IMG/VR virus record: IMGVR_UViG_2698536657_000009
Direction: 5' to 3' (one strand)
DNA from: a virus
Lineage: Duplodnaviria > Heunggongvirae > Uroviricota > Caudoviricetes
DNA length: 19,066 nt
The position numbers were made by a program. Positions 1 through 3,000 of this stretch are shown in pieces. Positions within the stretch are counted from its first letter, which is position 1, and the number at the start of each line of letters is the position of its first letter.

Positions 1-3000
1 GCCATCAGCGCTGGTCAGGGTTCCGTCAGAGTTCACACCAACTGTCGTTCTGGAATCTGTATATTCACGAGACTTTTTCGCTTCGACTACAAGGCGGGTA
101 TTCGTATCCTGAGCCAGTTGCTCAACACTGTCTTTTACACGGTCAACCTGACGAACGGTTGCTGCATCTGAGGGACGAGTACCGTCACTCAGGCCACCAA
201 GCACACGAGTTTTATAAGCCTTGCCCGCTTCTTCTACGTAGCCGATATAAACTTCATTATCACGGGTAGTGTGCGCTCTCGCCCCTAAAGCAACACTATT
301 TCTATGAGAAACTTCCGCTCTGCTTCCCAGTGCAGTGCCTTCGGGGGCATTTTCACCCACAACAGAGCTGCCCCCTAATGCCACGCCATAAACGGATGAA
401 TCATCCACATGAGAAAAACTTCCCAACGCGGTTGAACCATTAGCATAAGCCTGCCCCCCACTTCCTAATGCAGTACTCTGTCTCCCATGAGCACTAGCCC
501 ATGAACCAACAGCTGTTGAATTCTTTTCCTCCGCCGCTGCACCTTCTCCAACAGCCAGAGCGAATTCGCCCACCGCACTAGCCTGAACCAAAGGGTCACC
601 TTCCGGACGTGGTCCTGATGCGATGAAATCCGATTGTTTTAATACTTCAGGATTAATAATAGTATTTGATAGATTATTAACTTTATTGAAGATCCGGCGG
701 ACCTCCTCCTCATCAACCTGATGCTTACCGTTTTCTTTGTCAGACGTTCTGAGGCCTGCTGCCATACGGGCGAAGTCTTTTAGCACAGGCTCATGAACGG
801 TATATGCAATTGAGTTATCTTTACTCAATACTATAATATTACCCTCCTGATCGAAATTAAAAAGGGTCTCATCTTTTCCGTTCAGAACATATCGCATTGT
901 TCCCCAACCAGAGGATTTGTTATAGTAAATACGATAAGTACTACCGTGTATAACAGACGAAGCATCTGCCTCTTTCAGCACTGAATAAAAAGGCAAACCA
1001 GAATCTTTGATAGGAGGTAACTCCTGAGCTAAAACACCTGAGCTGATCCCAAGCAGAAGCCCACCCAGAGAAGATGACAGAAGTGTCTTTGTGAATTTTT
1101 TACTCATTATGGATATCCTGTTAAATTATCTGTATACAAATCAGCCGCAACACCTCATACTCATAAAGAAATATGATTAATTACGGCTTTATTCAGGATA
1201 TTCTGAAAATGATCGTGATTATTAATTTTAAATAACTAGGAATTATCTTACTATATTCTTGGTGTATTCACTCCTGAGACATAGAGCAACGTAGGAACCG
1301 AAATAAGAAAAATCTTACCCTCATCAGGCATGACATTTCACATCTGCTTACACTGTAATTTCTGATCAAGATCACAACATTATCCGAATTTAAATGTTCA
1401 GTTCATCTACAATATTTCCCTGCGTGACTTTATATCAGCCCCGTACATCCGTACGGGGCATGTTCTTTACTCCACTCCCACTTTTTTGTTGTACTCGCGG
1501 TTAAACCGATCCACGGCAATTTTCATATCCCGCTCAACCGATTTCACCATCGCCGACTGTTGCGCCAGACTGAGAGTACTGTCGGCGTAAATGGCATCAC
1601 GCTGTTTACGCAAATCCTTCAGTCTCTTCCGGGTATCCTGCATAAGCCCGTTCATCGACAATTTTCCGTTGTTCTCGTCAATGAACGCCGTTCTTTCTGC
1701 ACCGGTCAGACTCTTCAGCTCTGCGTGATACTGCGCGACCTCCGTCATCCGGTCGTACATCTTCTGCTGGTCAGCATACGGCATCACCTCACCTGAAATT
1801 TTCCCCAGGAAGGGCACCTGCTGCTCCGGTATATCAATACCATTCAGCGATTTCACCGCCGCATCCGTGGTTTTAGAAATGAAGCGCCCGGTCCCGCCAG
1901 AGATATAGTCAATCCAGAATTTCAGCGATTCCGGTGTGATATCCACCGCGCCGGGACGGTACTGGCTGCCACCAGAGAACGCATTCAGCCAGGATGCAAA
2001 CGCCTTGTACGCTTCTGGCGTTGAACGTCTTCCCAGCTGGCTGTCAGGTTTTGGTGTACCAAACGGCATGTTCTCCTGGTAAATCTGCGCCCCCATGAAG
2101 TTTTCATTCATGGCAAGGTTCGCAAACGGACGCAGAATGGTCGGCGCTGCATTTTTCAGCAATGCCCCGGACAGTGTTTCCGACGTCTCACTGCCAATCG
2201 GGCTGAATGCACCAAGCACACCACCAACAACATTACCGGCAGCACGGGACGCCGTCAGGTCACCCGCCGCCACACCTTCAGCGGTATGCCCGAGCAGGAA
2301 GAAAACGTTGTACCCGTAAGGCAGAGGAATACTCCAGTACTCTCCGGCCTTGCCCCCGAACATCGATTTCATAATGACGAGGTTACGCTCTTTCACATGA
2401 GACGGCACCTTGTCATACCAGTTAACCCCGTCATCATCCTCCCCCGCAACACTGCGGTTAAGCGAGCCAAGCAGATAACCCGCTCCCACAGCTGCAAGCG
2501 CGATTTTCTGCGGTACATTGAGATTCTTCCAGCGAAGGCGCTCCAGTAACGGCCCGTCGCCATTAAGATGTCCGAGCGTTCTCACCAGATTTGCCGTTCC
2601 CTGAATACTGGCGTTGGCGAACATGTACAGCGAGTTCATCAGCGCCCCCTGCTCACCACGACGGTTAAAGTTCACCGTCATGTTTTTGGCAAGAGACGCC
2701 GCCTGCTGGCGTGACAAACCGGCATCACGGGCGTGTTTATAAGCTGACAGACGCAGTGCGTTTTCAACCGCGCCGTTGGCATCCTCGACCAGGTTCAGGA
2801 ACGAATTCCATGCACCGATACTCTGGCCTTTCCATCCCCCCTTCGCCAGTGAGACAAGGCGATCCATTTCCTTCTGCTGGCCTTCAAGGTCACCCATGTT
2901 AAACCAGCCGGTTTTGCCTCCGTCCTCAACAAACTCTTTCCACACCTTCTGCCACTGTGTACCTTTGCCCGTGAGAGTTTTGCCTCGCAGACTGGCGTAC

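Follow-up and report, generated by a model that had tools for sequence, protein, structure and literature searches.

The stretch of Caudoviricetes DNA analyzed here (IMG/VR record IMGVR_UViG_2698536657_000009, 19,066 nt; hereafter the window) begins with a partial eib gene on the minus strand. Its reading frame starts with an ATG at 1107-1105, 8 nt behind an AGGA ribosome binding site (1119-1116), and stays open for 369 codons down to base 1, where the window end cuts the gene; these are the first 369 codons of a total of 508. The giant gene adjoins upstream on the same strand, in agreement with the preliminary description of this DNA, which had placed the adhesin gene directly downstream of it. 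The strand itself had been left unstated there. The giant gene is conserved in 933W-like Stx phages and represents the last late gene of the 933W-like prophage. The GC-rich hairpin behind its stop codon is also common to 933W-type Stx phages; no U-tract follows it on the minus strand. Homology to Stx phages ends at window position 1430, and Stx phages of the same backbone exist without eib. The coordinates of all features are compiled in Table 1.

Table 1. Features of the eib locus within the window (aa numbering refers to the Eib protein).
Feature	Position	Strand	Basis
Partial eib CDS, codons 1-369 of 508, EibG/EibH type	1..1107	-	Translation, D9J075 identity, Pfam YadA_head
Right-handed coiled-coil stalk (aa 319-352) and start of saddle (aa 353-369)	1..153	-	EibG/EibE comparison, 2xqh
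Neck, aa ~291-318 (…KTRVLGGLSDGTRPSDAATV)	154..237	-	EibD neck in 2xqh; EibG 25/28 identical
Left-handed parallel beta-roll YadA-like head, aa ~174-290, divergent allele	238..588	-	Pfam YadA_head; 2xqh alignment
Eib-specific N-terminal domain, aa 28-173	589..1026	-	Boundaries Q28-L173 from PMC12511318
Predicted signal peptide, aa 1-27 (VLA/QE cleavage)	1027..1107	-	Sequence features; EibG 26/27 identical (JNEC-KY208)
AT-rich eib leader/putative promoter region, in mobile cargo block	1108..1417	-	GC 32-34%; conserved upstream of eibG, eibE, eibC
GC-rich hairpin after the stop of the giant gene, phage backbone and not cargo	1438..1459	-	9-bp stem, dG -22.5 kcal/mol, z = -4.35
Giant polyvalent phage protein, 2795 aa; LPD5, LPD1, MuF_C, LPD38 domains	1467..9854	-	ORF list, Pfam

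The translated eib part is identical in 368 of 369 residues to the UniProt entry D9J075 ("Immunoglobulin binding protein"), and its DNA differs by a single nucleotide from a near-identical chromosomal copy (locus L001). Annotated YadA-like genes of complete genomes match this DNA at 99.9% identity, so that a chance reading frame can be dismissed. In comparison to EibG of strain JNEC-KY208, the protein is co-linear over 508 aa with zero gaps (88% aa and 89.5% nt identity), followed by EibE (66%), EibD (57%), and EibC (56%). PHROG family phrog_10464 spans residues 1-369 (E=1.7e-88), with the PHROG matches being families of unknown function. The initial assignment as a prophage-encoded trimeric autotransporter adhesin of the Eib family is borne out by these identities, and the identity of the gene can be regarded as settled, because a solved homologue structure as well as near-identical named sequences exist. 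Both the gene family and a near-identical deposited protein are already known; the gene is real but ordinary.

Analysis of the domain layout recovered the signal peptide, the YadA-type head repeats, and the neck that had been recognized initially (sequence, Pfam YadA_head, and 2xqh alignment). Direct reading of the sequence predicts a Sec-type signal peptide (MSKKFTKTLLSSSLGGLLLGISSGVLA, followed by QE) with a K-rich n-region and a hydrophobic core; EibG deletion constructs begin at Q28, matching the predicted mature start here (PMC12511318). The N-terminal domain shares 140 of its 146 residues with EibG but only 45-55 with EibC, EibD, and EibE, and no Pfam family matches it. Pfam YadA_head covers the subsequent head in three stretches (E=1.1e-11), and residues 163-417, comprising head, neck, stalk, and saddle, align to the EibD crystal chain 2xqh (E=1.2e-77). 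The neck boundary at V318 was taken from PMC12511318. All 34 residues of the coiled coil (aa 319-352) are identical to EibG as well as to EibE. The saddle starts within the window and is contained as a whole in full-length copies.

The anchor and the Fc-binding segment (codons 370-508) were read from two chromosomal copies (L001 and L006), with the window stopping at codon 369. Both loci (99.9% identical DNA) host a 508-aa gene with the C-terminal membrane anchor anticipated for the complete reading frame (Pfam YadA_anchor, E=3.5e-15), and the YadA anchor structure 2lme matches the full-length copy (E=1.7e-17). Beyond the window end, D391 and A392 are kept in both copies at the same positions as in EibG (...GRTDRID391A392AVG...), and the segment from saddle to coiled coil is 88/93 identical to EibG. 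The D391A exchange in EibG abolished Fc binding (PMC13534694).

The head deviates from this picture. Only 71-74 of its 117 residues (~62%) are identical to the heads of EibG (73/117), EibE, EibD, and EibC. On nucleotide level, the identity to eibG falls to 57-71% across nt 601-900 (the head region), with near-identical EibG sequence on both sides. Of 5426 complete E. coli genomes, four contain this head allele at ≥98% nt identity; the next best match reaches 69%. The head is the sole unusual part of the gene.

Among the known systems, EibG (Lu et al. 2006; Q0EAF1; STEC O91:H14 JNEC-KY208) is near-identical in signal peptide, N-terminal domain, neck, coiled coils, saddle, D391/A392, and anchor, and its locus contains the same leader and the same downstream orf156-SPATE block. 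It differs in the head and in its carrier, a lambda-like prophage at ompW versus a 933W-like one at rcsB/rcsD here. EibG of JNEC-KY208 has been deleted and complemented (PMC13534694). Within clusters of 90% protein identity, the window protein is separated from Q0EAF1 and the D8WU entries, and shares its cluster with D9J075 (a 2010 deposit; F231 versus Y being the difference), which includes members from E. coli O146. D9J075 possibly corresponds to the EibH variant from cervid STEC or to an EibG beta/gamma subtype. EibH, reportedly described by Bardiau in 2010, is said to be ~88% identical to EibG. Text searches for EibH returned mostly irrelevant or passing mentions.

EibC, EibD, and EibE of the ECOR-9 prophages (Sandt & Hill 2000; EibD structures 2XQH and 2XZR) share the architecture and a cassette of eib, orf156, with or without orf60, and eaa. 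EibE is almost identical to the window-type protein in coiled coil and anchor. In contrast, the N-terminal domains of all three are only 31-38% identical, and their upstream gene is ORF-191 instead of the giant gene. YadA of Yersinia, the prototype of type Vc, possesses YadA_head repeats, neck, and YadA_anchor, but neither the Eib N-terminal domain nor a saddle; the Eib protein scores 98 bits versus a cut-off of 750 bits for the NCBIfam YadA model. YadA of Yersinia is plasmid-borne. The saddle, present in Eib proteins, is also absent from Saa and Yal.

ClaA/ClaB and Yal (Kotaka et al. 2026, PMC13534694) resemble the window protein as trimeric autotransporters of LEE-negative STEC conferring chain-like adherence. 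Both groups do not bind immunoglobulin and, unlike the window protein, are devoid of the N-terminal domain; the Cla proteins furthermore miss the Fc-binding aspartate, are <50% similar to Eib, and reside in other genomic contexts (PMC13534694). The window gene could, in analogy to ClaA/ClaB, encode an adhesin that forms chains and does not bind immunoglobulin. The divergent head would fit such a function, chain formation is separable from Fc binding, and non-Fc-binding relatives occur in the same serotypes including O146:H21 (PMC13534694). However, the overall identity to EibG, the EibG-type N-terminal domain, and the full-length copies with D391 and a conserved segment from saddle to coiled coil set the window protein apart from the Cla proteins, rendering this function quite improbable.

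A second alternative arises from the window ending within eib: the gene might be decayed or truncated in this strain, with only an intact 5' part captured. Homologous genes behind the same giant gene are indeed annotated shorter elsewhere (1179 and 1017 nt), and in one of these (deer strain 48), another signal peptide and N-terminal region take the place of the 5' part. In the window, on the other hand, 369 codons are open, with F231 for Y being a single conservative change relative to intact copies. In all three near-identical complete genomes (98.5-99.9% nt identity), the full 1500-nt match coincides with a YadA-like gene; this gene is intact, at 1527 nt, in both genomes looked at in detail. 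The contig break is most simply explained by an assembly break. We rate a decayed gene as very improbable.

The spacer between the eib start and the stop of the giant gene (1108-1466, 359 bp) has a GC content of 34.5%, compared with 50.8% in the window overall and 54% in the giant gene; the codons of the signal peptide and N-terminal domain are also low in GC (41%). The AT-rich upstream region had initially been given as 330 bp, which roughly agrees with the ~310 bp (1108-~1417) conserved with other eib loci. Stretches of 97/100 and 140/168 nt of this leader are identical to KY208, and a 168-bp fragment upstream of KY208 eibG drove plasmid expression in complementation (PMC13534694), suggesting by homology a promoter within the leader. 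A scan of the leader for consensus sigma-70 promoters gave none above threshold, the only minus-strand match overlapping the start codon. An Rfam scan of positions 1-1700 returned nothing credible, with one snoRNA match (E=0.22) inside the giant gene. The preliminary description had also proposed xenogeneic silencing, which can only be inferred from the AT-richness and finds no motif support: a scan for the H-NS motif (TCGATAAATT-like, ≤2 mismatches), being a weak test, detected zero sites in 1108-1466, and the window total of 22 sites versus 15.5 +/- 3.8 expected by chance represents no enrichment. The papers examined on this point contained no report of H-NS control of eib; they describe low expression under agitation or at low temperature and induction in static culture.

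Prophage cassettes combining eib, orf156, and an Eaa-type serine protease autotransporter (SPATE) have been described in the literature. The conserved cargo block determined here comprises 6.9 kb and consists of the AT-rich leader, eib, orf156, and the Eaa-type SPATE. In L001 and L006, eib is followed by a 157-aa ORF (phrog_6585) and an S6 peptidase autotransporter, which is the order found in P-EibC; the block boundary at position 7417 of L001 corresponds to window position 1417. This allele is carried by an stx-less 933W-like prophage at rcsB/rcsD, a prophage site for which a literature search found nothing relevant. The lambda-like prophage at ompW of the EibG reference strain JNEC-KY208 ends in the same block, which is 94.7% identical between both prophages and their two chromosomal sites. 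There, a DUF4376/tail-fibre gene precedes the block instead of the giant gene. In the P-Eib records, eib lies between stem-loops. Unrelated backbones, sharp homology boundaries, and deviant GC content argue for the block being a phage moron.

The preliminary description had suggested a conserved cargo block linked to the giant gene. The block itself is confirmed by its occurrence in two unrelated backbones, whereas the giant gene is no part of it: it belongs to the 933W-like backbone, and only 13 of 424 genomes having its 3' end show the junction with eib. In addition, ORF-191 of P-EibC/D/E was considered as the C-terminus of the giant gene and ruled out, its 3' end matching the end of the DUF4376 tail-fibre-region gene (KY208). 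The classical Eib prophages are therefore without linkage to the giant gene. A structural role in the 933W-like phage itself, as tail fibre or spike, for which its location where the late structural cluster ends and the fibre-like architecture of beta-roll/coiled-coil trimers might speak, has a negligible probability considering the predicted cleavable Sec signal peptide, the YadA_anchor of the full-length copy, Stx phages of the same backbone being entirely without eib, and the same cassette in a lambda-like prophage; Pfam and NCBIfam matched only autotransporter adhesin families, and the alignment to tail-fibre proteins conceivable at the outset was not obtained in Pfam, PHROGs, or NCBIfam.

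Taken together, the gene, whose 5' two-thirds lie in the window, very probably encodes a prophage-borne immunoglobulin-binding, chain-forming adhesin of the EibG/EibH type, carried as cargo. The eib gene and its leader represent the proximal end of the 6.9-kb moron, placed after the giant gene in a 933W-like short-tailed prophage. Extrapolating from the homologues, the Eib adhesin would be exported via Sec, and its C-terminal 4-strand segment, encoded beyond the window, would trimerise into a 12-strand outer-membrane barrel. An obligate outer-membrane homotrimer is thereby suggested solely by homology to the EibD and YadA structures. The barrel would display a lollipop-shaped trimer composed of N-terminal domain, beta-roll head, neck, right-handed coiled coil, saddle, and left-handed coiled coil. 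Homotypic contacts of the heads would hold daughter cells together, leading to chain-like adherence, aggregation, and biofilm, and the left-handed coiled coil around D391 would bind IgG Fc non-immunologically. The protein would also be expected to confer serum resistance.

As the head is only ~62% identical to that of any tested Eib, adherence mediated by this allele may not follow the pattern of reference EibG. Deletion of the head abolishes chain formation, with chains arising by homotypic contacts (PMC12511318). With chaining being homotypic and dependent on the head, this allele might establish a self-recognition specificity of its own, either restricting chaining to kin with the same head or resulting in an "atypical" short-chain pattern. 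We offer this as a speculative and rather unlikely scenario, together with an under-counting of the allele in O146:H21 STEC, conceivable because its 89.5% nt identity to eibG falls just below the BLASTn cut-off of 90% applied in the 2026 survey.

The family, its structure, immunoglobulin binding, chain forming, and the association with the Eaa protease were described in 2000-2006 and again in 2025-2026. LEE-negative STEC lineages, O146:H21 among them, are marked by this allele, which screens relying on an identity threshold toward reference eibG can miss. For tracking virulence-gene flow, it is of note that the cassette moves among different prophage backbones and integration sites. The head-swap allele provides a natural variant that can be used to probe the determinants of homotypic chain formation.

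Our analysis assigned the partial adhesin gene at the left edge of the window (eib) to the minus strand, which had gone unstated in the preliminary description, immediately downstream, as claimed there, of the giant gene, which is on the same strand. An AGGA motif was found 8 nt upstream of the eib ATG. The N-terminus of the product, MSKKFTKTLLSSSLGGLLLGISSGVLA followed by QE, is a typical Sec signal peptide, and Pfam YadA_head matches the protein in three stretches (E=1.1e-11), bearing out the description of a secreted protein with YadA-type head repeats. Residues 1-369 are covered by phrog_10464 (E=1.7e-88).

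The left 1500 bases of the window are 99.9% identical to the complete chromosomes of FHI_NMBU_10 and JNEC-KY176; the match to JNEC-KY171 is 98.5%. In the first two strains eib is whole (1527 nt, 508 aa), and a single nucleotide, leading to F231 instead of Y, separates the window gene from the FHI_NMBU_10 copy. Examination of the complete reading frame for a C-terminal anchor, as proposed earlier, revealed Pfam YadA_anchor (E=3.5e-15), seen in these near-identical sister loci, the 3' end of the window's own gene lying beyond the window. The full protein aligns with the YadA anchor structure 2lme (E=1.7e-17) and with the EibD structures 2xqh (residues 163-417, E=1.2e-77) and 2xzr. It shares 88% amino acid identity with EibG of the STEC O91:H14 strain JNEC-KY208 (508 aa, no gaps), 66% with EibE, 57% with EibD and 56% with EibC. 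The window part is identical in 368 of 369 residues to UniProt D9J075, "Immunoglobulin binding protein", whose 90% cluster contains several members from E. coli O146. The assignment to the Eib family was thus right, and the gene, although correctly spotted, is already known.

Two other readings were weighed. Cla and Yal are related non-Eib adhesins lacking the N-terminal domain; Cla also lacks the Fc-binding aspartate and is less than 50% similar to Eib proteins (PMC13534694). The published EibG boundaries (N-terminal domain Q28-L173, neck to V318; PMC12511318) coincide with the same residues in the window protein, and the full-length copies carry D391/A392 within ...GRTDRIDAAVG... exactly as in EibG, where D391A abolished IgG Fc binding (PMC13534694). 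On these grounds the window protein is not a Cla/Yal adhesin. A tail-fibre protein, named earlier as a refuting outcome, was rejected, since NCBIfam assigns the sequence to autotransporter-adhesin families only and PHROGs to families of unknown function, no tail-fibre family occurs in either set, and the sister copies carry YadA_anchor.

Features of the window and of related loci (L001, FHI_NMBU_10 locus; L006 and L010, JNEC-KY176 locus and prophage; L007, deer strain 48)
Feature	Location	Strand	Details
eib, partial CDS	start ATG 1107-1105, open to base 1	minus	369 codons, frame cut by window end
Spacer, eib to giant-gene stop	1108-1466		359 bp, 34.5% GC
GC hairpin	1438-1459		9-bp stem, dG -22.5 kcal/mol, z -4.35
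Giant gene	1467-9854	minus	2795 aa, 54% GC
Spacer upstream of lom	13090-13516		427 bp
Ail/Lom-family outer-membrane beta-barrel gene	13517-14251	minus	Pfam Ail_Lom, E=2e-32, late region
orf156	L001 5021-5494		157 aa, downstream of eib, outside window
Second YadA-like gene and hok	L006 33146-34863		408 aa (YadA-like)
Region examined for stx	L010 26943-30644		JNEC-KY176 prophage
Mapped prophage ends	L010 (NZ_AP045172.1 1852483-1854467); L006 11418-18649; L001 1-4649		outside window
eib homologue of deer strain 48	L007 5581-7467		RefSeq CDS annotated shorter

The linkage of eib to the giant gene had been taken to suggest a conserved cargo block. Such a block exists, starting at ~1417; the giant gene is phage backbone and lies outside it. 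BLAST comparison of the FHI_NMBU_10 locus with the JNEC-KY208 eibG locus returned a single 6.9-kb block at 94.7% identity, one end of which lies ~180 bp past the protease gene and the other ~310 bp ahead of the eib ATG (window ~1417). It is preceded by the giant gene in the 933W-like prophage, and in JNEC-KY208 by a DUF4376 gene, tail fibre, Lom and gpJ of a lambda-like prophage at ompW. Stx phages match the window from 19066 down to ~1430-1437 and diverge beyond, and the giant gene's 3' end runs into the eib leader, the AT-rich stretch upstream of the ATG, in only 13 of the 424 complete genomes that have this 3' end. The GC hairpin sits on the backbone side of this boundary. Phage PhiR12_3 carries an eibE-like cassette at another site of the same backbone. 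ORF-191, found upstream of eibC, eibD and eibE, was rejected as the end of a giant gene because its 3' end is the same as that of the JNEC-KY208 DUF4376 gene.

In the sister loci, the giant gene and eib are followed by orf156 (phrog_6585) and a 1330-aa S6 peptidase autotransporter, after which the prophage ends beside rcsD. Prophage P-EibC has precisely this arrangement, eib-orf156(-orf60)-eaaC, and the joint occurrence of eaa and eib on prophages has been described before. The orf156 product, always linked to eib, matches no Pfam or NCBIfam family and only phrog_6585 (unknown function); an identical protein carries the label "LuxR family transcriptional regulator" in one source. Its role may be that of a cassette-specific regulator or of an accessory factor. 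The giant protein carries LPD5 (1050-1199), LPD1 (1360-1439), MuF_C (1748-1846) and LPD38 (2478-2683) domains behind ~1000 N-terminal residues without a Pfam match; it is of the "polyvalent" type, proposed to be packaged and injected.

By analogy with its homologues, the eib product would be exported by Sec, its anchor would trimerise into an outer-membrane barrel, and this would present the trimer at the cell surface as a lollipop. Daughter cells would be held in chains and aggregates by homotypic contacts that depend on the head, and the left-handed coiled coil around D391 would bind IgG Fc. EibG of JNEC-KY208 has been deleted, complemented and mutated experimentally (PMC13534694); EibG renders bacteria serum-resistant and has a part in virulence in mice.

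The preliminary description had further regarded the leader as typical of xenogeneically silenced genes acquired horizontally. Low GC (whole window 50.8%) continues into eib, with 41% in the codons for signal peptide and N-terminal domain, and the leader is conserved (97/100 and 140/168 nt identical to JNEC-KY208). A homologous 168-bp segment was sufficient for plasmid expression of eibG, claA and claB (PMC13534694), so the leader probably holds a promoter. A simple sigma-70 scan gave no hit in the leader except one overlapping the start codon, and Rfam gave no match there. EibG is expressed poorly when cultures are shaken or kept at low temperature, and static culture induces it. Because a motif scan found no H-NS consensus site in the leader, and the literature searched on EibG expression and H-NS held no report of H-NS control of eib, silencing is plausible but unsupported.

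The allele is carried by a ~62-kb 933W-like prophage with an N4-gp56-type capsid. Its insertion separates rcsB from rcsD, neighbouring genes that are transcribed together in K-12. At one end the rcsB start codon follows the integrase stop after 44 bp; at the other, ~570 bp lie between the end of the SPATE gene and the rcsD stop. A literature search for integration at this site gave only a gene-table mention of both genes. No stx genes are present in the JNEC-KY176 prophage, where only a DUF7661 gene and a gap separate the Q antiterminator from the SASA esterase (nanS-p-like). Lacking stx, this prophage is a relative of the Stx-converting phages; phiSTEC1589-Stx1c is 97.5% identical to the window from 1430 onward. 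In the JNEC-KY176 prophage, near-identical to the window in other respects, a second YadA-like gene and hok are inserted upstream of lom, where the window, like PhiR12_3, has a spacer only; the position appears to be a second hot spot at which adhesin cargo inserts. The Ail/Lom-family gene is another surface-protein cargo gene of the window prophage.

Compared with reference eibG, nucleotide identity is 89.5% over the whole gene and very uneven: mostly 97-100% by segment, with two segments at 86-89% and nt 601-900 at 57-71%. Identity to EibG (JNEC-KY208) is high in signal peptide (26/27), N-terminal domain (140/146), neck (25/28), right-handed coiled coil (34/34), saddle to left-handed coiled coil (88/93) and anchor (63/63), with 73/117 in the beta-roll head, which is equally far from the EibE, EibD and EibC heads (71-74/117). 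Judged from these alignments, the allele is a mosaic with a replaced head. Of 5426 complete E. coli genomes, only 4 carry this head segment (window 238-588) at >=98% nucleotide identity, the next best match being 69%. One carrier is a Swiss deer isolate (strain 48; head 98% identical), whose homologue also sits behind the giant gene. There a different sequence (MGNRLLRRAVSVAISGTLLGLGVGVSAAEDM...) stands in for the signal peptide and the start of the N-terminal domain, a further case of mosaicism in the family. Q0EAF1 (original EibG) and the D8WU entries fall into the reference-type cluster, D9J075 into that of the window allele. Its published name may be EibH (cervid STEC), EibG-beta or EibG-gamma; EibH reportedly shares ~88% identity with EibG, a value consistent with this allele.

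The 2026 survey (PMC13534694), with a threshold of >90% BLASTn identity, recorded eibG in 0 of 518 O146:H21 genomes. The study's two complete O146:H21 genomes, JNEC-KY171 and JNEC-KY176, carry the window allele. As its 89.5% identity lies just below the threshold, the survey may under-count it and its prevalence may be under-estimated. The mildly new angle is confined to this rare head allele and its position just under the survey threshold.
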